Below are positions 35,135-64,000 of a stretch of 64,000 nt of DNA, piece after piece. Position numbers and translations under genes: made by a program. Where the stretch lies: contig DASQZM010000016.1 of assembly GCA_035638695.1 (NCBI GenBank), positions 24,035-88,034 of the forward strand. Reading direction: 5' to 3'. The notes beneath the pieces are model-generated. The model saw only the letters and a program-made list of their open reading frames with translations, made no database searches and was not told where the DNA came from. Origin of the DNA: Gammaproteobacteria bacterium. GTDB lineage: Bacteria > Pseudomonadota > Gammaproteobacteria > UBA5335 > SLRW01. Position 1 is the stretch's first letter. Each line of letters starts with the position of its first letter.

Positions 35135-37165
35135 ATGGCAACCGCGAAGAAGAACAAAACCGGTGCGGGGGGACGTTCCAACCGGCGGTTTATCGTGCTG
35201 CTGGTCCTTCTGGCGCTCTCGGTCGCCGGCAGCGCCGTGATCTTTGCCTACCTCGGGTCGGTCCAGGGCCATGATAAGAAATACCTCGAGATCACGCGCC
35301 AGCAGAGCCGCCTGAGCGACCGCATCAGCCGTTATGCGATGCTGGCAGTACGCGGTCGGGTCTCCGATCCGGATGCGGGCACCGGCCCGTTCCAGGCGCT
35401 GCTCAGCGCCAAGACCGCTTTCAGTCACGACATGGTGATTCTGCAGCACGGTGATCCCGCCCGGGGCCTGCCCGCCGCGCCGGCAGCGACACGCCCCGCC
35501 ATCGGGAAGGTGCGCGGGCTTTGGCGAAAACTCGACCGGCATCTGCAGGTCATCCTGAGTGGGCGCGGCTACCTGCCCAAGGCGCACGGTTACGCCGCGA
35601 CGCTGGACAAGCTGCTGCCCGGGATGGGGTCAAAGCTCCTGGGCTTGGCCGGCCAGGCCCACGGCAGTCGCGCCCGCGTGCTCGAGCGGCAGGTAGTGCG
35701 GGTGCAGCGGATCAACCAGCAGATCGACGCGCTGGTCCACGCCGGGGGTGGCCGCACACCGTCCGGCAAGCAGCTCAAGCAGTCCATCGGCACTCTCGGC
35801 ACCTCGCTCCAGGAGCTTAGCCACGGGAATCCCTCGAAGGAACTCACGGCGCCCGCCAGCGCCCGGGAGCGTCAGGCCCTGGATGCTCTGCTCGGGGACT
35901 ACCAGAAGCTGTCCGGGCAGGGAGGATACATCGCTGCTCACGCGGATGGCCTGGTCAAGGCGCAGCAGGCGCTCGCGGGGCTCGCGATCGAGCCCCTGCA
36001 GAACGCGCTGGCACAGCAGGAACAGGCGTTCCGCGAGGTGATGCGGGATCGTCCCGTGAAGGCGACCTACGGGCTGGCTTTGGCGGCGCTGGCCGCGGTG
36101 CTTCTGGTCATGGCCATCTATAGCATGACGTCGCAGATCCGCCGCTTGCTGCGCAACGCGCGGGAGCAGAACAGCCGTAACCAGGACGCCATCCTGCAGC
36201 TGCTGGACGAAATGGGCACCCTCGCGGAGGGCGACCTGACCGTGCAGGCGAGTGTGAGCGAGGACATCACGGGGGCCATCGCCGACTCCATCAACTACGC
36301 CATCGAAGCACTGCGCGACCTGGTGACGACCATCAACACGACGGCGGAACGGGTCGCGACCGCCGCCTCCGAGTCCCGGGACAACGCCAGCCGGCTGATT
36401 CGGGCCAGCGAGCAGCAGAGCGGGCAGATCAACGCCACCAGCGGCGCCATCGAAAACATGGCGCATTCCATTGGCCAGGTATCCGAGAACGCCCAGCGCT
36501 CGGCCAAGGTGGCGCAGCAGTCGGTGCAGACGGCGGCCAAGGGCGGCACCGCAGTACGCCGCACCATCGAGGGCATGGACAGCATTCGCGAGCAGATCCA
36601 GGAGACCTCCAAGCGCATCAAACGCCTCGGCGAGAGCTCCCAGGAGATCGGAAACATCGTCGAGCTGATCAACGACATCGCCGAGCAGACCAACATCCTG
36701 GCCCTGAACGCGGCCATCCAGGCGTCGGCTGCCGGGGAGCAGGGTCGCGGATTCGCGGTCGTGGCCGACGAAGTCCAGCGGCTGGCGGAGCGTTCGACCA
36801 ATGCGACCAAGCAGATCGAGGCACTGGTCCGGACGATCCAGGCGGATACCAACGAAGCAGTGACCTCGATGGAGAACAGCACTTCCGGCGTGGTGGCCGG
36901 CGCCAAGCTGGCCGAGGATGCGGGCAACGCGCTGGACGAGATCGAAAGGGTGTCGAACCAGATAGCGAGCCTGGTACAGAGTATCTCGGATGCGGCGCGC
37001 CAGCAGTCCCGGCAGGCCGCGGAAGTGACCAGCAACATGACCCAGATCCAGAAGGTTACGCAGGAGACGGCAGAGGGCACCCGCGAGACCGGGGACGCAA
37101 TCGGCCGGCTTGCGGAGCTGGCTACGGAGCTGCGCGAGTCCGTGGCAGGGTTCAAGCTGCCATGA
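35135..37165 (+). CDS. pilJ: methyl-accepting chemotaxis-type receptor PilJ
   Basis: 676 aa. N-terminal TM, periplasmic region, second TM and HAMP. Highly conserved MCP signalling tip EIGNIVELINDIAEQTNILALNAAIQASAAGEQGRGFAVVADEVQRLAERS. Confidence 0.9.
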   Translation: MATAKKNKTGAGGRSNRRFIVLLVLLALSVAGSAVIFAYLGSVQGHDKKYLEITRQQSRLSDRISRYAMLAVRGRVSDPDAGTGPFQALLSAKTAFSHDMVILQHGDPARGLPAAPAATRPAIGKVRGLWRKLDRHLQVILSGRGYLPKAHGYAATLDKLLPGMGSKLLGLAGQAHGSRARVLERQVVRVQRINQQIDALVHAGGGRTPSGKQLKQSIGTLGTSLQELSHGNPSKELTAPASARERQALDALLGDYQKLSGQGGYIAAHADGLVKAQQALAGLAIEPLQNALAQQEQAFREVMRDRPVKATYGLALAALAAVLLVMAIYSMTSQIRRLLRNAREQNSRNQDAILQLLDEMGTLAEGDLTVQASVSEDITGAIADSINYAIEALRDLVTTINTTAERVATAASESRDNASRLIRASEQQSGQINATSGAIENMAHSIGQVSENAQRSAKVAQQSVQTAAKGGTAVRRTIEGMDSIREQIQETSKRIKRLGESSQEIGNIVELINDIAEQTNILALNAAIQASAAGEQGRGFAVVADEVQRLAERSTNATKQIEALVRTIQADTNEAVTSMENSTSGVVAGAKLAEDAGNALDEIERVSNQIASLVQSISDAARQQSRQAAEVTSNMTQIQKVTQETAEGTRETGDAIGRLAELATELRESVAGFKLP

Positions 37166-37241
37166 GCGCCGGTGCGCGCCGGACAACGTAAGAGGCGATC
37201 GGGCCCGCTTCCCGCCGGGGGTGGACCGGAGTTTAGGGCCT

Positions 37242-40200
37242 ATGATGAAGCAGTCGGTTTCCGACTCCCTGCAATGGGTCAAAACGCAGCTCGATCAGTC
37301 GTTGCTGGCGGCCCGCAACGAGCTCGAGGCGTACGTGGACTCGCCCGAGGACGCATCGCCGCTGGAACGCTGCGCCGACGAGCTGCACCAGGTCGCCGGA
37401 ACGCTCGCGATGCTGGAGCTGACCGGTCCGCTCCTGATCACGCGGGAGCTGGAGTTTCTGCTGCAGCAGCTGCGTGGCGGCAACGCGCCAGAGACGGTCT
37501 ACGAGCCGATGCTCGCGGCGCTGATGGTGCTGCCGCACTACCTCGACCGGCTGCTGCACGGCCAGACCGATCTGCCGCTGCTGCTGCTGCCCCAGCTCAA
37601 CGGGCTGCGCACGGCTGCCGGCAAGCGCGCGCTTTCCGAGATCGACCTGTTCATCGAGACCCTGCCCGGCCTGCCGGACAATGACTACCTGCCACCCGAG
37701 GCCGTCAGCGGCGATCCCGCGGCAGAGGCCCGGCGACAGCGCGGGGTGTTCCAGTCCGCTCTCCTGCGGTGGATGAAGGACCCCACCGCAGAGCAGCACC
37801 TGCAGCGCATGCTGGACGCCATGGCGCGGATGCAGGGGGTGACCGCCGATCAGGACGCGTACCGGCTCTGGGGTGCCGCCGCGGCGGTGATCGAGGCGCT
37901 CAAGGACCGGGGGCTGGAAGCGGACAACACGCTCAAGCAGCTGCTCGGCCGGGTGGATCGGCAGCTCAAGCAGGTCGCCGATACGGGGCGGGCGCACGAG
38001 CCCGAGCGGCTGTTTTTGTCCCTGCTCTACTTTGCCGGCCGGGCCCGCTCGAGCGGTCAGCGCCTGCGGTATCTGTACGATGCCTTCGGGCTGGCCGAGC
38101 TGGTCCCGGATCCCGAGGAGCTCGAGCGGGCCCGCCAGGCCATGGCGGGGCCCGACGCGGAGCTGATCGGCAGCGTCTCGCGCGCGATCCGGGAAGACCT
38201 GGTAAGCGTCAAGGAGGCACTGGACGTGTTCCTGCGCGTCGAGGCCGCCCCCACGGACGAGCTGGCGCCGCTGGTGGAAACCCTCGCACGCGTCGCCAAC
38301 ACCCTCGGCATGATCAACATGCGGGGCATGGAGGAGCTGGTTGACGAGCAGGCCGCCGCGCTTAAGGCCATCACCGACGGGGAGGAAGAGGCGAGCGACG
38401 CCGGCCTGCTCGAGATTGCGCGCAATCTGCTCAACGTCGAGAGCCGCCTGGAAAGCGACGTGCTCCGTGACATCGAGCCCGGCGAGAGCGACTCGCAGGA
38501 GCCGCACGGCGTCGATCTCGAAATCGGCCGGGCCGTGTTCCGCGAATCGATCCGCAACCTGGCGCGCGTCAAGGAGAGCCTGACAGAGTTTCTCGAGCAG
38601 GAAGGAGACGTTTCCCTCGTGCGGGAAGCGATCCAGCTGCTGCACGAGATCGAGGCCAGCCTGGCGATGCTGGAGCTGGACCGTCCGGGAAAACTGCTCG
38701 GAGCCCTGCGCCAGTACTTGGCATACGAGATACTCGAGCGTGGGCACACGCCCGGCAGTGCCACCCTGGAGATCATCGCGGACGCCGTCATCAGCGTCGA
38801 GTATTACCTGGAGGCCCTGCGGGAGGGCCGCACCAGCCCCGAGAGCATTCTTGACACTACCGAGGGCTACGTCGACCTGCTGCAGGAGGAGCCCACGGGA
38901 GACTGGACCGCCACGGCGGTCGAAGCGGGCATCGGCGTACCGGCAGACGCGGCTCCGGAACAGGGCCACCAGGAGCCGCCGGAGCAGGCCGGCGGGGAGG
39001 AGCCGTCCTCCCGGGAAGAGCGCCCCGCCGTCGCCGAGGGGCAGGAGAATACGCACCGGGTACCGCCGGTGACGCCGCCCCAGGACGACGTCGACGAGGA
39101 GATCGTGGACATCTTCCTGGAAGAGGCGGAAGAGGTCCTGGAAACGTTCTCGGAGTTCGTGCCCCGCTGGCGCAACAACCCTGGTGACAACGAGGCCCTG
39201 GTCACCGTGCGGCGGGGTTTCCACACGCTCAAGGGCAGCGGCCGCATGGTTGGCGCCGAGTTCATGGGCGAGTTCGCATGGTCGATCGAGAACATGCTCA
39301 ACCGGGTGATCGATCAGACCGTGCAGCGCAGCGACGAGATCGTCGCGCTCATCGGCGAGGCTGTGGCCGCCCTACCCGAGCTGCTGCAGCAGCTGCGCGA
39401 CGGGACGCCGCCGCAGACGGACGTGCTGGGAATCATTGCGCGCGCTTACGAGATCGCCCAGCCGGGAAGCGCCGAGGCCGCGCGCGCTGCCGAGGCTGCG
39501 GGCAAGGCTCTGCACGGAACCGGGAGCACCGGGCCGGCAGAAGCCGGCGCGCCCGTGGACATTGGTGAGGAACCGCCGGAGCCCCCCGAGGGGCAGGAGC
39601 GGCCCGTAGAAGAAGCCGCCGGCGTCACAGACAAGGAAGCAGAGCCTGCCCGGGAACCCGGGGCCACGCAGATCGGCGCGGAGGCGGGCGAGGAAGCGCG
39701 AGAGCCGCCCCGGGAAGAGCCGGGAGTGGAGCAGACGGAAGGCACCGCAACGGAGCCGCGGGAGCCAGGAGCAGAAACCGGCGAGGAGGCCGCCGCGGCG
39801 CCGGAGACCGGCTCCGGCGGGCCCCGCATGGACTCCGTGCTGTACGAGATCTTCAGCAAGGAATGCGGTGGGCACCTCCAGACCGTCGACGCCTGCCTGC
39901 AGGCTGCCCGCGAGGGCGAGGAGGCGGATACGGTCGGCGACGACCTGATCCGCGCCCTGCACACGTTGCACGGCAGCGCCAACATGGCCGAGGCCACGGG
40001 GATCGCCGAGCTTGCCCGCCGGCTGGAGCATCTGGCCAAGGCGATGCACAACAAGCGCATGACGCTGGCCGGGGAGACGGAGTCCCTGTTTCGCACCAGC
40101 ACCGACGCGGTCCGCGACATCCTTGCGGCGCTGGGCGACAGCTCCGTGCCGATGCCGGATCACAGCGAGCTGTGGGCGCGGATCGAGGCCTACGAGCGCG

Positions 40201-42845
40201 AGTTGCTCGAGCGCGACGTCGGCCATCGCCAGGTCAGCCGCGACGAGCTCGACACGCCCGAGACGATGGATCCGGCGCTGACTGAGATCTTCCTCGACGA
40301 GGGCGTTGAAATTCTCGCCAAGGCCGACGAGATCCTGCACGACTGGAGCACCGAGCCGGCGAACCAGGAAGAGGTCGACGCCTTGCTCCGGGAGCTGCAT
40401 ACGCTCAAGGGCAGCGCCCGCATGGCGGGCGCCCGCAACATGAGCAACCTGACCCACGAGCTGGAGGCGGCGGTATCGCTGCTCGCGCGCGGTCGCATCA
40501 GCCGCAGCGACGACTACATTGACCTGCTGGTACGCACCGTGGATCAGCTGCATACCATGCTCGACCGCACCCGTTCCGGGCAGCCGGTAGAACCGGCGCA
40601 GGCGCTGCTCGATGAGCTGCAGCCGGCCCGCAGCGCGCCGGCTGGCCCGCCGGCCCCGGAGGAGACGGGCCCGGACGAGGCAGCGGCCAAACAGGCGGCC
40701 TCCGGAGAGCCGGAGGCGCCGGTGGAACCGCAGGACGAGCGGGAGAGTGGCGAGGCGGCATCCGGGGAGACGTCGGAAGCGGCCCGGGATGAAACCGGAG
40801 TCGCCGGGGAGGACGGTGCCTCCGCCGCGGCGCGCCAGGGGCCGGCCCGGTCGCGAGAGGAGCCCGCGGAAACCGCCGTGCAGGGCCGCGACGAGCCGCC
40901 GGCCGTCGAGAGCCAAGAGAATGAATCCGCGCCGGTGCGTGCTGCCGCGCCGGCGGAGGAGCATGGGGCTCCCGCTGCCCGGTCCGCCGGTTCGGACCTG
41001 ATCCGGGTGCCGGCCGAAATAATGGATACGTTGCTCAACAACGCCGGTGAGGTCAGCATCTACCGCGGCCGTCTGGAACAGCAGATCAGCTCGCTGGGCT
41101 TCAACCTCACCGAGCTGGATCAGACGGTGGAACGCCTGCGCAACCAGCTTCGGGAGCTCGAGATCGAGACCGAAGCGCAGATCCTGCACCACTACGGCCC
41201 TGAGGAAGAGGATCGGCTGCGGCAGGAGTTCGACCCGCTCGAGCTGGACCGCTACACGCGGGTGCAGCAGCTCTCCCGCGCGCTGGTCGAGAGCGTGTCG
41301 GACCTGACCAGCGTCGAGGAGCTGCTGGAAAACCTTCGCCGCGAGTCCGAGAGCCTGCTGCTACAGCAGTCGCGCGTGGCCACGGAGCTCCAGGACACCC
41401 TGATGCGCACCCGGATGGTGTCCTTCACCACCCAGGCGGCACGGCTGCGACGCATGGTCCGGCAGGTCTCGGCGGAGCTGGGAAAGCGCGCGCATCTTGA
41501 GGTCGTGGGCGAGGCAGAGCTGGACCGCACGGTGCTGGACCGGGTCATGCCGGCGCTGGAGCACATGCTGCGCAACGCGATCGCGCACGGGCTGGAAGTG
41601 CCCGAGGAACGGCGCCGGCGCGGCAAGCCTGAGGCGGGCACGCTGTCGGTGGCGTTGCACCGCGAGGGCGCCCAGGTGGTGATCGTCGTGCGTGATGACG
41701 GCGCCGGCCTGGACCTGGGGGCGATCCGACGCAAGGCAATCGAGAAAGGCCTGACGCGCGAGGGGGTCGAGCTCAGCGACCAGGACATCATCCAGTTCAT
41801 CCTGGAGCCCGGCTTCACCACCGCGGACAAGGTCACCCAGATTTCGGGCCGCGGTGTCGGCATGGACGTGGTCGACGCCGAGATCAAGCAGTTGTCCGGC
41901 TCCCTCGCCATCGACTCGGGCCCGGGCACCGGTACACGCTTCACCATCCGGCTCCCGTTCACGCTGGCCATCAGCCAGGGGTTGCTGGTGCGCCTCGGCG
42001 AGGAGACCTACGCGGTTCCGCTGAACGCCATCGAGGGCGTGGCGCGACTGGCGCCCCAGGAGGCGCATGAGTACCTCACCGGACACCAGACCCACTACCG
42101 CTACGGGGGCACAACATTCACCGTCCGCCCGCTGTCGGAGCTCATGGGCGCCGGCAGCCGGCTGCCGGCGGACGACGCCCAGACGGTGCCGATGATCCTG
42201 GTGCGGGCGGGCGAGGAGCGCGTCGCCCTGACCGTGGACAGCCTGATCGGTAGCCGTGAAATGGTGGTAAAGTCGGTCGGTCCCCAGCTCGGCGGTATCC
42301 GGGGCATCTCCGGCGCCACGATCCTGGGTGACGGCAGCGTTGTGCTCATCCTGGACCTGGTCGCGCTGGTGCGCTCCGGTGCCATCATGCAGCGCGCGCG
42401 AGAGACCGGCGCGGCCTACGAAAAGACGGACGCCGAGGCGGAACGCGGCGTGACCGTGATGGTCGTGGACGATTCCATCACCGTGCGGCGGGTCACCACG
42501 CGGCTGCTGGAAAGCCGCCAGATGAAGGTCTTGACCGCCAAGGACGGGGTCGACGCGGTGGCCCTGCTGCAGGAGAACCATCCTGACATCATGCTGCTGG
42601 ATATCGAGATGCCGCGCATGGACGGCTACGAACTGGCCAACCACATGCAGGGACACGAGGAATGGCGTGACATCCCGATCATCATGATTACCTCGCGCGT
42701 AGGCCAGAAGCACCGTAGCCGGGCCCTGGAGATCGGGGTGGACGAATACCTCGGCAAGCCCTATCAGGAGGCGGACCTGCTGGAGACCATCAATACGGTG
42801 CTGGAACGCCACCGCCGAAAAGATACGGCAGAGGCCGCCAAGTGA
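37242..42845 (+). CDS. chpA: ChpA/PilL-type hybrid CheA histidine kinase (multiple Hpt, kinase core, CheW-like, C-terminal receiver)
   Basis: 1,867 aa from ATG 37242 (MMKQSVSDSLQWVK). Three canonical Hpt sites: GFHTLKGSG (His codon 39222), ALHTLHGSA (39960) and ELHTLKGSA (40398), plus N-terminal degenerate Hpt-like helices. HATPase blocks HMLRNAIAHGLE, DDGAGLD and GRGVGMDVV. CheW-like domain. REC domain VMVVDDSITVRR...LLDIEMPRMDG. Confidence 0.9.
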   Translation: MMKQSVSDSLQWVKTQLDQSLLAARNELEAYVDSPEDASPLERCADELHQVAGTLAMLELTGPLLITRELEFLLQQLRGGNAPETVYEPMLAALMVLPHYLDRLLHGQTDLPLLLLPQLNGLRTAAGKRALSEIDLFIETLPGLPDNDYLPPEAVSGDPAAEARRQRGVFQSALLRWMKDPTAEQHLQRMLDAMARMQGVTADQDAYRLWGAAAAVIEALKDRGLEADNTLKQLLGRVDRQLKQVADTGRAHEPERLFLSLLYFAGRARSSGQRLRYLYDAFGLAELVPDPEELERARQAMAGPDAELIGSVSRAIREDLVSVKEALDVFLRVEAAPTDELAPLVETLARVANTLGMINMRGMEELVDEQAAALKAITDGEEEASDAGLLEIARNLLNVESRLESDVLRDIEPGESDSQEPHGVDLEIGRAVFRESIRNLARVKESLTEFLEQEGDVSLVREAIQLLHEIEASLAMLELDRPGKLLGALRQYLAYEILERGHTPGSATLEIIADAVISVEYYLEALREGRTSPESILDTTEGYVDLLQEEPTGDWTATAVEAGIGVPADAAPEQGHQEPPEQAGGEEPSSREERPAVAEGQENTHRVPPVTPPQDDVDEEIVDIFLEEAEEVLETFSEFVPRWRNNPGDNEALVTVRRGFHTLKGSGRMVGAEFMGEFAWSIENMLNRVIDQTVQRSDEIVALIGEAVAALPELLQQLRDGTPPQTDVLGIIARAYEIAQPGSAEAARAAEAAGKALHGTGSTGPAEAGAPVDIGEEPPEPPEGQERPVEEAAGVTDKEAEPAREPGATQIGAEAGEEAREPPREEPGVEQTEGTATEPREPGAETGEEAAAAPETGSGGPRMDSVLYEIFSKECGGHLQTVDACLQAAREGEEADTVGDDLIRALHTLHGSANMAEATGIAELARRLEHLAKAMHNKRMTLAGETESLFRTSTDAVRDILAALGDSSVPMPDHSELWARIEAYERELLERDVGHRQVSRDELDTPETMDPALTEIFLDEGVEILAKADEILHDWSTEPANQEEVDALLRELHTLKGSARMAGARNMSNLTHELEAAVSLLARGRISRSDDYIDLLVRTVDQLHTMLDRTRSGQPVEPAQALLDELQPARSAPAGPPAPEETGPDEAAAKQAASGEPEAPVEPQDERESGEAASGETSEAARDETGVAGEDGASAAARQGPARSREEPAETAVQGRDEPPAVESQENESAPVRAAAPAEEHGAPAARSAGSDLIRVPAEIMDTLLNNAGEVSIYRGRLEQQISSLGFNLTELDQTVERLRNQLRELEIETEAQILHHYGPEEEDRLRQEFDPLELDRYTRVQQLSRALVESVSDLTSVEELLENLRRESESLLLQQSRVATELQDTLMRTRMVSFTTQAARLRRMVRQVSAELGKRAHLEVVGEAELDRTVLDRVMPALEHMLRNAIAHGLEVPEERRRRGKPEAGTLSVALHREGAQVVIVVRDDGAGLDLGAIRRKAIEKGLTREGVELSDQDIIQFILEPGFTTADKVTQISGRGVGMDVVDAEIKQLSGSLAIDSGPGTGTRFTIRLPFTLAISQGLLVRLGEETYAVPLNAIEGVARLAPQEAHEYLTGHQTHYRYGGTTFTVRPLSELMGAGSRLPADDAQTVPMILVRAGEERVALTVDSLIGSREMVVKSVGPQLGGIRGISGATILGDGSVVLILDLVALVRSGAIMQRARETGAAYEKTDAEAERGVTVMVVDDSITVRRVTTRLLESRQMKVLTAKDGVDAVALLQENHPDIMLLDIEMPRMDGYELANHMQGHEEWRDIPIIMITSRVGQKHRSRALEIGVDEYLGKPYQEADLLETINTVLERHRRKDTAEAAK

Positions 42846-59040: not shown

Positions 59041-59249
59041 TGAATGCGCGCCAGTATAGCAGCGGCGGGGTCGGGAGCCGAAACGGGACGCATCGCGTTG
59101 TCCCAGCACCCAGCATGGGTACTTTGACGAATCCTCGGGCTTTGTCTACGCTTTTTCCATAAAAGCAAATCATGACTAGCGCAAAGGAAATGCGCTCGCG
59201 TGATAAGGCCCCGCTTGGGGAAGGCAGACAGGGACGTTCGGGGGCCGGC

Positions 59250-62200
59250 ATGGATGCTTGGCGCTGCGCACGACGGGTGGTCTGCGCGTTGACCGCCCTG
59301 ATTATTCCGGCGACGTCGATCGCCGTTTCGGCGGATGACGGTCCGGACCGGAACTACGCTCATGCACTCTGGCTTGCGCGCGGCAGACGGGTGCTTCGGC
59401 TGCCCGTAAACGCGGGCGATAGCGACCTGGAGATCGACAACGCGGCGCCTGTCTCGCGGCTGGCGCTGGACCGGGAGCGCGGCCGTCTTTGGATCTATAC
59501 CGGCGGGAACCTTGCCGCCTTCGACTTCGACGGCAGGCGACTGCACCAGACGAGAGTGGTCTCCGCCGCCCAGGCCGCGTGGGATCGCCTGCCATTGCCG
59601 CATCCGTTTCTCCACTTGGCGCTACGGCCGGATCACGGTCTGTGGCTCGTGCGGGGCCGGTCGCTGGTGCTCGTCGCTCCGGACGATACCATCGAGGCAC
59701 GCAAGCAGCTGGACGAAGGGGTGCTCGACGCCGCTGCCGATCCGGAGACGCGTCGCCTGTGGCTCGCGGGTCCGTTCTCCGTGACGGCCTACGATCAGGC
59801 CGGCAACAGGGCCGCGCATCTGTCCACGTTCCCGCACCCGGTGCGCGCCGTCGCGCCCGGACCCGGAGGAGCGACGCTCTGGCTGGCGGGCCCCCCCGGC
59901 TTGCGCCTGGTCGACATGACTGGTGCTGTCCGGCAGCGGTATCCGTCCGTTCACGCGGATGACCTCGCGCGAGACGGACAAGGCGGTTTGTGGGCGCTCT
60001 CGCGGCGGACCCTCTGGCGCATCGATCCGGCCGGGCAGGTCGTGGTGGTACGTCGGATGCGCCCGGTCCGCGGCCGAGGCTGGCGGCGCGGCTGGGCCGT
60101 CGACCCCGCCGACGGCACGTTATGGATGGCCACCGGGCCGATCGTGCGCCACATCGGAGGCGAAGGCTCGGTGCTCGGCCAAAAGACCCTCTCCAGCATG
60201 CCGCCGCGGCTGCTCGACCGCCTAAGCGGCATTGCAGTGTATGCGGACACGTTTCCGCCGACGCTGGAAGTGGCCTCGCCCGCGAACGGGGCTTTCCTGG
60301 CGACGCACCGACCGATGATCCGGCTTGGCTACGACGACAATGGTGTCGGGGCAGATCCGTCGTCCATCCGGGCGCAGAGCGCGGGCAACGCGCTTCCCGT
60401 GGACTGCAGCGGGGACCGGACCAGCGCGCAGTGCATGCCGGCACGAGAGATTCCCGACGGGGCGCTGGATCTCGCCGTGACCGTGGCGGACTTTGCCGGC
60501 AACCGGTCCCAGCCGGCCCACGTGTCCTTCACAGTGGACACGATCCCGCCGAAGATCACGGTGAGCTCGCCCGAGGACGGCGCCTGGACCAACGACCCGC
60601 AGCCGACGCTCGCCGGCAGCGTGTCCGAGCCGGCCACGCTCACGCTTGACGGCAGCCCACTAAACCTGGACGTGCGCCACGCCTTCCGTCAGCCACTGGA
60701 CCTGACCGAGGGCAGCAACGCCCTGCACCTGGTCGCGGCCGACCGCGCCGGCAATCGTGGAACGGCTGAGCTTACGGTCCACCTGGATACCGTTCCGCCC
60801 GATCCCGTGCCTGGGTCAGCACTCACCGTTGGCACGCCGAGCAACGGCCAAGTGACCCTCTCGGGCGAAAAGGGCAGTGTGCCCGCGGGGATCGAGGTTG
60901 TTGTCAGCAACCTGGATACGGGCGATCACGTAACCACCGACGCCAACGCCGGCGGGAGCTTCTCGGCCAGCATCGCCGCCAAGGCCGGCCAGAGTCTGGA
61001 GATCCAGGCGGTCGACCGCGCCGGCAACCTCAGCGAAGCTCTCGCCGAGCACGTCGGCCCGCCGGATCCGGCGAAGGTCGCCCCGAAGATCGATCCAACG
61101 GTCAGCGCGAGCATGGCGGAGACCACTGCCTTCCTCTACCAGGGGAGTGAGCCGGTGCAGACCGGTGTCGCCTCGGGCGCGATCGAAGCGCGCCGCGCGG
61201 CCGTCATCCGCGGCAAGGTCATTTCGCGGGACGGCACGCCCCTCCCCGGCGTTCTGGTCACGGTCCAGGGGCATCCGGAGCTGGGTCAGACCCTGACGCG
61301 CAAGGACGGGCGCTACGACCTCGCCGTCAACGGCGGCGGGGCGCTGGTTCTGCGCTACTCGCACCAGGGCTACCTGACTGCAAGGCGCCAGCTCCATGCG
61401 AAATGGCAGAGCTACCTGGAGTCCCCGACCGTGGCGCTTGTGAAGCCAGACGCGCATGTGACCCCGGTGTCGTTTGGTGATACCAGCGTCACCCAGTTGG
61501 TCGGGGGGAGTCTCGAGACCGACGCCGCCGGCAGGCGCCGCGCGATTGCCGTATTCGCGCCGGGCACGCAGGCGACCATGGAAATGCCGGATGGGAGCAC
61601 GCGCAGCCTGGGTGGAGGAGACGTCCGGATCACGGAATACACGGTTGGCGACAACGGTCGCAAGGCGATGCCGGCCCGTCTGCCCGACATGAGCGGCTAC
61701 ACTTACGCCGTAGACCTGAGCATTGACCAGGCGCAGACGGCGGGTGCCACCCGCATCGACTTCGACAAACCAGTGCGCCTTTATGTGCGTAACTTTCTCG
61801 GCTTCCCGGTCGGTGGCGCCGTCCCGCTGGGCTGGTACGACCCGACGCAAGCCCACTGGGTGCCCGCGGACAACGGCCGCATCGTCGGTGTGCTCTCCCT
61901 CGACACCGACGGCTGTGCGCTGCTGGATGTGGATGGCAGCGGTCAGCCTGCGAGCGGCGACGCGCTGGGGTCGCTCGGCATCGATCACGCCGAGAAGTGT
62001 CGTATCGGGCACCTGTACTCGGCCGGCCAGAGCTTCTGGCGCATGTCGGTTAGCCACTTCACCGTCTATGACAGCAACTGGCCCATAACCCTCCCGCCAG
62101 GATCCGCGCCACCCGAGGAAGCTCCGCACGCCGCCGGTCGCGGTAAGCTGGACAGCAACCGGGATAACCAGTGCCCGGGCTGCCGCATCAACGCACAGCC

Positions 62201-64000
62201 GCAAGTCCTGACCCAGAGCATTCCAATCGCTGGCACGGATTTGCAGCTCGTCTACAGCGGCGACCGAGCCAACGGGTATACGGTCGGTCGCTCGATCGAT
62301 ATTCCCGTTACGGGAGACACGGTCCCGGACTATCTGCTCAGCGCCGATGTAACGGTGAGGGTTGCCGGGCAGGCCGTGCATCGCCATTTTTCGCCGGATC
62401 CGGACCAGCACTTCGGATTCGTCTGGAACGGCCGGGACGCCTATCGCCGTAAGGTGTACGGCGCCTACAGGGCAACCGTGACGGTTTCCTATACTTATCC
62501 GTTGGTCTATCTGAGCGCCTTCACGGGTGGCGTGTCGTTTGATATGGCCCCACGCAAGCGACAGGAGATAGGTCCAACGTTTCTAACGACGGGTCGCACC
62601 TACTCCCTGAGTCGGACCTGGACCATCAAGCTGCAGCCGGATATCCCGGACAGCAACGCGCTCGGCGGCTGGATGTTGGACGTACATCATGCATACGACC
62701 CAGTGGGGCACGTGCTGGTCAAGGGGGACGGATCTCATCGCGGCGCCGGGTCGGTGGGGCTGGTGGTGAGTACCATTGCGGGTGGTGGCACCAGGTCCCC
62801 GGACAACGTGCCCGCCAAAGAGGCCAAGCTGAGCCAACCCACGGATCTCGCGGTCGACAGCGCCGGCAACTTGTTTATCGCAACATTCGAGGGGCTGATG
62901 GAAGTCACTTCCGACGGCCGAATCCACGAGCTCTCCCCCAACGTCCGGGGACCGAGCACAGTGGCGGTCGGGCCGGACGGAAATCTGTACGTCGGGTCCT
63001 ACGATGGCAATACGATGTACAGGCTACAACCGGATGTCGCGATCACCGCAATCGCAGGCAACGGCGACCATTGTCCCGACTCGTCCAGTGATTGCGGTAA
63101 CGGCGGACCCGCGATTGACGCCAGTCTCGACATCGAGGATATCGCCGTGGGCCATGACGATACGATCTACCTCATGCACGAGGACCACTTCTCGAGGCAG
63201 CAGCACCTCAAGGAGATCACCCCCGACGGGACATTGCACGATCTCCTCGCGTGGAGTGGCTCGCTCGCCTGCTGCCAGGCGAACAGGGTAGCGGCAGATC
63301 GCAACGGCGGGGTCTACTACGGTGGCTGGGAGGGTCCGGTCCTACGGAAGGGCCCGCACGATAAGACCAGCAATATTCGCCCGGCATCGCCGAATCTCAT
63401 CGCGGATTTTGCGCAGGGCCCGGACGGCTGGGTCTACGTGCTGGACGGATCGCGTATATGGAAGGTCGGCCCGGATGGGGCCGACGCGGTGATCGCGGGA
63501 TCCGGAGCAGCGTGTTTCAATGATCAGGACGGGTGCGGGGACGGGGGGCTGGCGCTGGATGCCGCCTTCGACGGTGACGGTGCGGGACGCCTGGCGGTTG
63601 CGCCGGATGGCGCCATCTACGTCACGGATCTCTATACCAATCGGGTTCGCAAGATCAGCCCGTCACTCCCCGGCCGAAGTAATGGCAAAATTCTCGTGCC
63701 CTCGCGGGATGGCAGCAAGCTGTTCTACTTTTCTCCCGATGGCCGTCACTTGCGCACTACCAGCGCGACCACGGGCGCGCTCGTCTACCGTTTCGGTTAC
63801 GACGACACCGGACGGCTGATCAGCATCACCGACGGCAGTGACAATGTAACCACGATCGGGCGCGACAGCGCTGGCCGAGCCACGGCAATCGTCGCGCCGG
63901 ACGGCGAGAAGACCACGCTGCAGATCAATGCGTCGGACCAGCTCGTACAAGTGACCGACCCGGCTGGAGCAAGCTGGAAGGCCGGTTACGAGGACAACGG
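59250..64000 (+). CDS. secreted RHS/YD-repeat, teneurin-like polymorphic-toxin scaffold protein, 3' end beyond window (>1,583 aa)
   Basis: I translated it by hand and found no stop from 59163 to 64000. Sec-type signal MDAWRCARRVVCALTALIIPATSIAVSA. Seven ~40-aa LW blades. Ig-like modules ending D-x-AGN. CarboxypepD_reg/TTR-like RGKVISRDGTPLPGVLVTVQGHPELGQTLTRKDGRYDL. NHL-type repeats (LSQPTDLAVDSAGNLFIA, VAVGPDGNLYVGS, LAVAPDGAIYVTD). YD repeats at the end (YRFGYDDTGRLISITDGSDNVTTIGRDSAGRATAIVAPDGEKTTLQ). In-frame ATGs at 59172 and 59190 are alternative starts. Confidence 0.85.
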   Translation, partial: MDAWRCARRVVCALTALIIPATSIAVSADDGPDRNYAHALWLARGRRVLRLPVNAGDSDLEIDNAAPVSRLALDRERGRLWIYTGGNLAAFDFDGRRLHQTRVVSAAQAAWDRLPLPHPFLHLALRPDHGLWLVRGRSLVLVAPDDTIEARKQLDEGVLDAAADPETRRLWLAGPFSVTAYDQAGNRAAHLSTFPHPVRAVAPGPGGATLWLAGPPGLRLVDMTGAVRQRYPSVHADDLARDGQGGLWALSRRTLWRIDPAGQVVVVRRMRPVRGRGWRRGWAVDPADGTLWMATGPIVRHIGGEGSVLGQKTLSSMPPRLLDRLSGIAVYADTFPPTLEVASPANGAFLATHRPMIRLGYDDNGVGADPSSIRAQSAGNALPVDCSGDRTSAQCMPAREIPDGALDLAVTVADFAGNRSQPAHVSFTVDTIPPKITVSSPEDGAWTNDPQPTLAGSVSEPATLTLDGSPLNLDVRHAFRQPLDLTEGSNALHLVAADRAGNRGTAELTVHLDTVPPDPVPGSALTVGTPSNGQVTLSGEKGSVPAGIEVVVSNLDTGDHVTTDANAGGSFSASIAAKAGQSLEIQAVDRAGNLSEALAEHVGPPDPAKVAPKIDPTVSASMAETTAFLYQGSEPVQTGVASGAIEARRAAVIRGKVISRDGTPLPGVLVTVQGHPELGQTLTRKDGRYDLAVNGGGALVLRYSHQGYLTARRQLHAKWQSYLESPTVALVKPDAHVTPVSFGDTSVTQLVGGSLETDAAGRRRAIAVFAPGTQATMEMPDGSTRSLGGGDVRITEYTVGDNGRKAMPARLPDMSGYTYAVDLSIDQAQTAGATRIDFDKPVRLYVRNFLGFPVGGAVPLGWYDPTQAHWVPADNGRIVGVLSLDTDGCALLDVDGSGQPASGDALGSLGIDHAEKCRIGHLYSAGQSFWRMSVSHFTVYDSNWPITLPPGSAPPEEAPHAAGRGKLDSNRDNQCPGCRINAQPQVLTQSIPIAGTDLQLVYSGDRANGYTVGRSIDIPVTGDTVPDYLLSADVTVRVAGQAVHRHFSPDPDQHFGFVWNGRDAYRRKVYGAYRATVTVSYTYPLVYLSAFTGGVSFDMAPRKRQEIGPTFLTTGRTYSLSRTWTIKLQPDIPDSNALGGWMLDVHHAYDPVGHVLVKGDGSHRGAGSVGLVVSTIAGGGTRSPDNVPAKEAKLSQPTDLAVDSAGNLFIATFEGLMEVTSDGRIHELSPNVRGPSTVAVGPDGNLYVGSYDGNTMYRLQPDVAITAIAGNGDHCPDSSSDCGNGGPAIDASLDIEDIAVGHDDTIYLMHEDHFSRQQHLKEITPDGTLHDLLAWSGSLACCQANRVAADRNGGVYYGGWEGPVLRKGPHDKTSNIRPASPNLIADFAQGPDGWVYVLDGSRIWKVGPDGADAVIAGSGAACFNDQDGCGDGGLALDAAFDGDGAGRLAVAPDGAIYVTDLYTNRVRKISPSLPGRSNGKILVPSRDGSKLFYFSPDGRHLRTTSATTGALVYRFGYDDTGRLISITDGSDNVTTIGRDSAGRATAIVAPDGEKTTLQINASDQLVQVTDPAGASWKAGYEDN

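Follow-up and report, generated by a model that had tools for sequence, protein, structure and literature searches.

The stretch of DNA analysed here (64,000 nucleotides of contig DASQZM010000016.1, referred to below as the window) ends inside a gene that very probably encodes a bacterial teneurin-like protein (TLP), that is, a self-contained polymorphic toxin of a gammaproteobacterium. TLPs are shell-shaped carriers of toxins, and it is from their family that animal teneurins descend. The product of this gene carries the TTR domain, FN-plug, NHL propeller and YD shell in the order found in animal teneurins and, as judged from sequence matches and a confident structural model, the resemblance is beyond chance and the order is real and homologous. 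A bacterial protein with the full teneurin order is not a discovery, since such proteins were described in 2018 (Jackson, PMC5851990) and confirmed structurally in 2026, when a cryo-EM structure, toxicity assays and immunity genes were reported (Raoelijaona, Nat Commun, PMC13018210); the best solved relative is BiTLP of Bacillus inaquosorum (PDB 9ifo, 9pt5; PMC13018210). We found the FN-plug, NHL propeller, YD shell, TTR domain, TIP ('teneurin insertion protein') domain, Rhs core motif with its Arg/Asp/Asp residues, and a short C-terminal domain (CTD) with a downstream open reading frame (ORF); these are all the TLP features that can be tested on sequence, and the nucleophile of the plug site is the sole variant among them.

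Recovery of the complete gene

The gene lies in a single open frame on the + strand, which begins after a stop codon at 59160 and is still open where the window ends. Taking the ATG at 59250 as residue 1 places residue 652 at base 61203, which matches the numbering of an earlier note made on this DNA from its letters alone. The gene caller chose an upstream ATG at 59172 (2505 aa); we favoured the start at 59250 because homologues have ~25-35 residues ahead of the propeller. The window holds 1583 codons, and the other 896 lie past its end. The full gene was found by an exact-sequence look-up of the neighbouring enoyl-CoA hydratase, which led to the ENA contig ERZ27257104 k141_219031 (90.9 kb), identical to the window wherever the two overlap (16,130 bases). 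Counted from the ATG at 59250, the complete protein is 2479 aa long, and the frame is unbroken for 2479 codons.

The host is a gammaproteobacterial metagenome-assembled genome (MAG). Among species-representative genomes (one per species), a relative was found in an Archangium MAG, at 39% identity; in a large protein database, the relatives among the matches listed reach at most ~46% identity and none is longer than ~1700 aa.

The teneurin core

The gene and its core domains are as follows (window coordinates, strand, feature, basis).

59250..64000, +: TLP gene, residues 1-1583 of 2479 (open frame)
61185..61433, +: teneurin-type TTR domain (transthyretin / carboxypeptidase-regulatory-like), residues 646-728 (Pfam, aligned to BiTLP)
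61434..62129, +: TIP domain, residues 729-960 (PDB-sequence match to BiTLP only)
62130..62183, +: loop ending in C975-P-G977-C978, with the predicted N-terminal autoproteolysis site between G977 and C978 and the conserved upstream cysteine C975 (alignment to BiTLP)
62184..62759, +: FN-plug, residues ~979-1170 (Pfam and phmmer)
62760..63689, +: six-bladed NHL beta-propeller, residues ~1171-1480 (Pfam, Foldseek, six strand motifs)
63708..64000, +: start of the YD/RHS shell, residues 1487-1583 (RHS_repeat and TEN_YD-shell); the shell ends at ~2354, outside the window

When the protein was compared with PDB sequences by phmmer, BiTLP was matched at E 8.9e-177 (9ifo/9pt5) and fly and vertebrate teneurins at ~1e-58. 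Pfam carries models named for each teneurin domain, and these were matched above their cut-offs: TTR_TEN1-4 at 646-728 (83.6 bits; curated cut-off 27), with CarboxypepD_reg at 653-714 (46.1 bits); FN-plug_TEN1-4 at 1018-1083 (30.0 bits; cut-off 27.8); TEN_NHL (64.2 bits; cut-off 27.1), with the general NHL model at 34.3 bits; and TEN_YD-shell, whose N-terminal edge falls at 1487, with RHS_repeat from residue 1517. Six NHL strand motifs can be read from the translation, at 1199-1211, 1238-1250, 1298-1309, 1347-1358, 1387-1398 and 1448-1460. The full shell, contained in the C-terminal 1025 residues encoded on ERZ27257104 k141_219031, scores 162.4 bits against TEN_YD-shell (cut-off 50) and includes 11 RHS-repeat stretches. 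The earlier note had placed a TTR-like domain at ~652-715, six NHL-type strands at ~1175-1480 and YD repeats from ~1490, and had read the whole as the teneurin order; each of these assignments was borne out, and a shell-sized YD array does continue downstream on the identical contig.

Its account of residues 716-1170, as an unassigned region with cysteines that might fold as an FN-plug, held only in part. The cysteines are there (C889, C917, C975 and C978); the region, however, is assignable, to the TIP domain at 729-960 and to the FN-plug at ~979-1170 only. Compared with PDB sequences, residues 729-974 matched BiTLP alone (its residues 484-706, E 4e-59) and no animal teneurin, whereas residues 975-1172 matched both BiTLP 723-924 (phmmer, E 2e-24) and the FN-plug of fly Ten-m and of vertebrate Ten2, Ten3 and Ten4 (E 1e-13 to 1e-17). 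The TIP domain sits between the TTR domain and the FN-plug in 96% of bacterial TLPs and is missing from metazoan teneurins (PMC13018210); the 2018 description had noted the region as a ~180-residue domain of unknown structure (PMC5851990). C889 and C917 lie within the TIP domain and are not conserved in the family, which has Leu/Met and Gln/Ala at those positions. Between these two lineage-specific cysteines (61915-61917 and 61999-62001) lies a DxDGSG...GIDHAEK segment that looks like a calcium-binding loop with a helical hairpin after it.

A structural model of residues 610-1583, built with AlphaFold2 (AF2) on 66 aligned sequences, had a mean pLDDT of 89.7 and a pTM of 0.88; the TIP domain was modelled with pLDDT mostly >90, and the sole low-confidence segment was 961-978. 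Teneurins came first when this model was compared with the PDB by Foldseek, as the earlier note's reading would lead one to expect: fly Ten-m (8fia, E 6.6e-52) and chicken Ten2 (6fb3, E 6.4e-51) were followed by mouse Ten3 and human Ten4. The first eight matches spanned E 6.6e-52 to 5.4e-48, and the teneurins among them had query-normalised TM values of 0.56-0.60 over ~1000 columns at ~20% identity. BiTLP (9ifo) was matched at E 2.9e-49 over a shorter alignment, because its TTR and TIP domains are not resolved in the map. The next matches were six-bladed NHL/Pizza6 propellers, with target-normalised TM values of ~0.8.

The predicted cleavage site in the plug

The cut mapped experimentally in BiTLP falls between G723 and S724, within an FN-plug loop buried deep in the shell; five residues ahead of S724 stands C719, which forms a disulfide with a cysteine in the tip that the shell encloses (C719-C2216; PMC13018210). 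We found that G977-C978 aligns with BiTLP G723-S724 and that C975 stands in the place of C719, in a loop that is two residues shorter. On this alignment, CPGC is predicted to be a self-cleavage site together with a tether cysteine, rather than a structural disulfide.

The alignment that served for the model (this protein and 65 relatives) has Ser after the plug cut in 51 of 66 sequences and Cys in 12, and a cysteine lies no more than 12 residues upstream of the site in 65 of the 66. The two forms differ further along the chain: a cysteine stands four residues further on in 45 of the 51 Ser forms (GSIIEC) and in none of the 12 Cys forms (GCxIxA), nine of which have Ala there. Ser, Thr and Cys are interchangeable as nucleophiles in autoproteolysis by N-O or N-S acyl shift, and the chemistry is plausible with Cys978 as the nucleophile. 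The serine at the plug site has been called 'highly conserved' (PMC13018210); that description is slightly extended by the Cys variant and the co-variation seen with it.

Rhs core, probable toxin tip and probable immunity gene

At the far end of the shell, the Rhs core aligns to that of BiTLP such that R2103, D2116 and D2140 correspond to R2313, D2326 and D2350 here, and the PxxxxDPxG motif is present as PLDFGDPFG, from P2345. The CTD that follows DPFGH (residues 2355-2479) is 125 aa long, is 26% Gly with two runs of overlapping GxxxG, and has one cysteine, C2411. TLPs are characterised by a short, hypervariable CTD of ~15 kDa with an immunity gene behind it. We found 10 homologues of it, at 38-74% identity, and in all nine that include the junction the domain begins directly after the DPxGL motif. 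Several of these homologues end classical Rhs cores with a sequence different from that of the TLP core; a further one is an orphan cassette. Because this distribution, over a TLP, classical Rhs cores and an orphan cassette, is the hallmark of polymorphic-toxin tips, we take the CTD to be one.

A further feature adjoins the tip on the longer contig.

ERZ27257104 k141_219031 166-606, -: 146-codon ORF, probable immunity gene (18 bases after the TLP stop; ~2.7 kb downstream of the end of the window)

This ORF is missing from the public gene call of the contig. Its 146-aa product has four hydrophobic segments of transmembrane length in a hydropathy scan, and its matches in Pfam are sub-threshold only. 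Genes 33-57% identical to it lie directly downstream of CTD homologues in three unrelated contigs (L007, L012, L013), and the four products have motifs in common, such as WWSSGAG and YLY..YF. Because of this linkage on three unrelated contigs, the four-helix membrane protein is probably the cognate immunity protein of the tip.

The tip may itself act by damaging membranes, since its composition is rich in glycine zippers, its partner is a membrane protein, and two tips carried in similar shells offer an analogy: the BiTLP tip permeabilises Escherichia coli when directed to the periplasm (PMC13018210), and the Rhs effector Tse5 encapsulates a pore-forming domain.

The same residues and genes bear on whether the protein is a toxin at all. 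Were it a surface adhesin or cell-cell recognition protein without toxin function, the shell would be a scaffold, as in animal teneurins; the large arm of propeller and Ig-like domains does suggest binding, published work leaves a role in cell-cell communication open, and the NHL blades have degenerated further than those of the family consensus. We nevertheless regard this as improbable, given that the catalytic Arg/Asp/Asp of the Rhs core is kept, a motif that animal teneurins have lost, that the short, polymorphic CTD of low third-position GC content (GC3) recurs on other Rhs proteins, and that a related small membrane gene follows the CTD homologues, which is the pattern of a toxin/immunity pair.

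Signs of cassette exchange and a probable adjoining insertion sequence

For the CTD we found a GC3 of 0.47 and for the downstream ORF one of 0.58, as against 0.75-0.89 in the gene body and 0.87-0.95 in neighbour genes; the drop is sharp and comes exactly at the Rhs cleavage motif. A fall of this kind usually marks a toxin/immunity cassette that has been swapped, and the locus shows tip swapping plainly. A broader and shallower change was also observed: overall GC falls from ~0.69 to 0.63 over the FN-plug, NHL propeller and early YD repeats (window 62000-64000 vs the rest), where GC3 is ~0.75, as against 0.87-0.95 in neighbours, and the whole TLP gene may thus be a somewhat older acquisition, separate from the sharper drop at the toxin tip.

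Past the immunity ORF, the contig ends within a probable insertion sequence.

ERZ27257104 k141_219031 1-140, -: start of a probable IS3-family transposase (~60 bp past the immunity ORF, at the contig end)

Only the 30-residue N-terminus of the transposase is present, with a weak Pfam match to HTH_Tnp_1 (E 0.024), and a possible terminal repeat, starting TGAACCGCCCC, lies ~25 bp after the immunity ORF. An IS3-type transposase (HTH_Tnp_1 and rve) also adjoins the TLP of one homologue locus (L017).

A transposase start so close to the downstream ORF, at the very end of the contig, is what might be seen if the gene were a decaying or inactive copy whose tip had been displaced by the adjoining insertion sequence, and the atypical cleavage motifs, DPFGH and DQVL, would fit such a history. 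That the gene is in decay is nonetheless quite unlikely, as its frame is unbroken over 2479 codons, its domains are predicted with high confidence, and neither the CTD nor the immunity ORF is broken or shortened when set beside its homologues.

A working model for the toxin, and what weighs against it

If the gene encodes a polymorphic toxin of the TLP family, as we favour, its parts could act together as follows. A Sec signal peptide would export the TLP, and the seven-bladed propeller, the three Ig-like domains, the TTR domain and the TIP domain would form an outward-facing arm for display or recognition. The FN-plug would seal the N-terminal mouth of a YD shell of ~870 residues, with the six-bladed NHL propeller placed on the side of the shell. 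At the shell end, the Rhs core (R2313, D2326, D2350) would cut the chain after DPFGH and so leave the 125-residue CTD free inside the shell, while a second self-cleavage would occur in the plug loop between G977 and C978, with a cysteine in place of the usual serine; C975 may tether C2411, the CTD's only cysteine, as the C719-C2216 disulfide does in BiTLP. The released tip would probably attack the membrane of neighbouring bacteria, and the four-helix membrane protein encoded directly downstream would protect the producer. The family offers precedents for a toxic CTD held in a shell, for autoproteolysis at two sites and for an immunity gene downstream (PMC13018210).

Several observations count against this model or some part of it. 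Machinery for outer-membrane export or delivery was not found beside the TLP gene or beside three homologues, whose gene contexts are unrelated to each other, and the signal peptide has no lipobox; this agrees with the published statement that TLPs lack any obvious machinery for delivery (PMC13018210). Neither the CTD nor the immunity ORF is within the window, to which they are tied by the contig that is identical over 16,130 bases. His stands directly before the predicted C-terminal cut, where Leu is usual (DPFGH vs DPxGL), and the first Asp motif reads DQVL, not DPxG; because both are atypical, the efficiency of the predicted C-terminal cleavage is uncertain. The CTD has no match in Pfam, in NCBIfam-type models or among PDB sequences, even when a profile of the CTD family was compared with the PDB, and the membrane activity of the tip is argued from its composition, from the membrane nature of its partner and from analogy.

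Comparison with known systems

With BiTLP the protein has in common, in the same order, Ig-like domains, the TTR domain, TIP domain, FN-plug, NHL propeller, YD shell, Rhs core, a short CTD and a downstream immunity gene, as well as the catalytic R/D/D, the cleavage loop with its upstream Cys, and a CTD that is plausibly membrane-active. Unlike BiTLP, it comes from a Gram-negative host, has an additional N-terminal seven-bladed propeller, has Cys for Ser at the plug site in a loop two residues shorter, and has His for Leu before the C-terminal cut; its CTD and immunity families are unrelated to those of BiTLP.

Metazoan teneurins (chicken Ten2, 6FB3; fly Ten-m, 8FIA) likewise have the TTR domain, the FN-plug, the six-bladed NHL propeller and the YD-shell superfold. 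They are, however, type II transmembrane proteins with an intracellular domain, EGF repeats, an ABD, a Tox-GHH C-terminus and an uncleaved Rhs core, whereas the TLP lacks a cytoplasmic domain, a transmembrane helix and an ABD, starts with a predicted signal peptide where teneurins have a type II anchor, has a TIP domain and keeps the autoproteolytic Rhs motif; it would be a toxin carrier, not a receptor. Pfam matches to EGF, Ten_N and Tox-GHH were not found in it, and a metazoan teneurin proper was ruled out, there being no type II anchor, EGF, ABD or Tox-GHH. The earlier note had proposed the protein as a useful point of comparison for animal teneurins. It does have the full teneurin order, but the comparison has already been published (PMC5851990, PMC13018210), and it is to Paenibacillaceae proteins, rather than to proteobacterial ones, that animal teneurins are most closely related among bacteria (PMC13018210).

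A YD shell, an Rhs core and an encapsulated tip are also the parts of type VI secretion system (T6SS) effectors such as RhsA, Tse5 and RhsP, and the protein shows weak sequence matches to T6SS Rhs cores; the Rhs core of Tse5 (Pseudomonas aeruginosa, PDB 8cp6), for one, matches at E 5e-11, and some CTD homologues end classical Rhs cores. Tse5 is delivered by a T6SS and lacks the TTR domain, TIP domain, FN-plug and NHL propeller, and no sequence similarity was detected between its tip and that of the TLP. That the protein would be an Rhs effector loaded on a VgrG spike is very improbable: no PAAR, VgrG-binding or prePAAR region was found with Pfam in its N-terminus, which is instead predicted to start with a Sec-type signal peptide; T6SS genes are absent from its upstream neighbours, which are metabolic (enoyl-CoA hydratase, thioesterase, cytochromes c, acyl-CoA synthetase); and its shell is closed by an FN-plug, which T6SS Rhs proteins do not have.

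TcB-TcC pairs (YenB/YenC2, TcdB2-TccC3) likewise combine a YD shell with aspartyl autoproteolysis of a hypervariable tip, but their shell, built of two chains, lacks an FN-plug, is closed by a propeller inserted in the repeats and depends on a TcA injector (PMC5851990). We can dismiss as extremely improbable that the protein is the BC component of an ABC (Tc) insecticidal toxin complex, for all that it has a YD shell, a beta-propeller, an Rhs-core cleavage site and faint matches to YenC2 (E 0.1) and TccC2 (E 1.4e-9), since it is a single chain whose propeller stands before the shell and is not inserted within the repeats, has the TTR domain and FN-plug by which TLPs are divided from TcB-TcC (PMC5851990), and has no TcA-like gene that we could find nearby.

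Predicted signal peptide, propeller head and Ig-like domains

The N-terminal part of the TLP holds three further features.

59250..59333, +: predicted Sec (SPase I type) signal peptide, residues 1-28, with the cut between MDAWRCARRVVCALTALIIPATSIAVSA and DD (hydropathy scan; AxA-like site read from the translation)
59355..60254, +: seven-bladed beta-propeller, residues ~36-335 (AF2 and Foldseek; no Pfam family)
60285..61076, +: three bacterial Ig-like domains, residues ~346-609 (Pfam)

The signal peptide has a basic n-region followed by a hydrophobic stretch, with a helix at 3-18 in the AF2 model, and it was predicted to be of the Sec/SPase I type because it has no lipobox. Residues 29-347 match no Pfam family. 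The AF2 model of this part (pLDDT 88.7) has 28 strands in seven groups of four, and its best Foldseek matches are seven-bladed propellers: WRAP-T, archaeal S-layer YVTN, YncE and WD40. The Ig-like domains were matched by Big_13 (47.8 bits), by Glucodextran_B (434-513, 40.1 bits) and by Big_6 (534-598), the last at 26.4 bits, slightly below its own cut-off. That this is a proteobacterial protein with extra N-terminal modules, as the earlier note put it, is thus upheld, the modules being the seven-bladed propeller and the three Ig-like domains, and the source a gammaproteobacterial MAG.

Among 1.84 billion representative proteins, the propeller head has 330 homologues at E <= 0.001, almost all of them N-terminal in their proteins, many of which are 2200-2900 aa long. 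All four that we checked are TLPs sharing the overall architecture; one of these (P0143) has a different tip, which is glucosaminidase-like. The head is within the known range of TLPs, because 'WD40' is among the variable N-terminal modules named in PMC13018210.

A possible Gram-negative clade

It is conceivable, though in our judgement doubtful, that the protein represents a distinct Gram-negative clade of TLPs, marked by three traits that the published account does not set out: by a conserved seven-bladed head outside Pfam, by a Cys plug nucleophile that co-varies with the loss of a cysteine, and by an unnamed glycine-rich tip paired with a four-helix immunity protein, the tip being one that also occurs on classical Rhs proteins. 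In the supplement text of PMC13018210, where gapped alignments could hide motifs, we found no mention of the propeller head, none of the Cys-variant site motifs PGCSI and PGCRI, and none of the CTD motif. If the tip forms pores and the Cys variant alters the opening of the shell, such a clade could inform how TLPs release or deliver their cargo without a dedicated injector. The leads for specialists are the Ser-to-Cys variant at the plug, the widespread and unannotated propeller head, and a new toxin/immunity pair common to TLPs and classical Rhs proteins.

For annotation, the gene is best labelled as a teneurin-like polymorphic toxin with a downstream immunity gene, and not as 'NHL/Ig-like/hypothetical'. 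Relatives in public records are named 'NHL domain-containing', 'Ig-like', 'hypothetical' or 'PKD domain-containing, partial', and many are fragments. In two homologue loci from long-read assemblies (L016 10001-17326 and L018 10001-15644), the TLP genes are broken into 2-3 adjacent ORFs, and this splitting probably reflects frameshift errors. Because genes are split and fragments are named by single domains, counts of TLPs based on annotation are too low.

Genomic surroundings

Metabolic genes lie upstream of the TLP, each of them on the opposite strand (for an enoyl-CoA hydratase, a thioesterase, two cytochromes c, an acyl-CoA synthetase and a methyltransferase), and the TLP gene forms a divergently transcribed unit behind a 519-bp intergenic region. 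No tRNA genes or Rfam families were found in the window. Elsewhere in it, at 35135-42845 (+), a gene for a PilJ-like methyl-accepting protein (676 aa) is followed by one for a ChpA-like hybrid kinase of 1911 aa, in which several Hpt domains are combined with CheW and a receiver domain; the two genes together make up a Pil-Chp cluster of the kind that serves type IV pilus chemosensing. This cluster suggests that the bacterium lives on surfaces and moves by twitching, in keeping with the link reported between TLPs and social bacteria.

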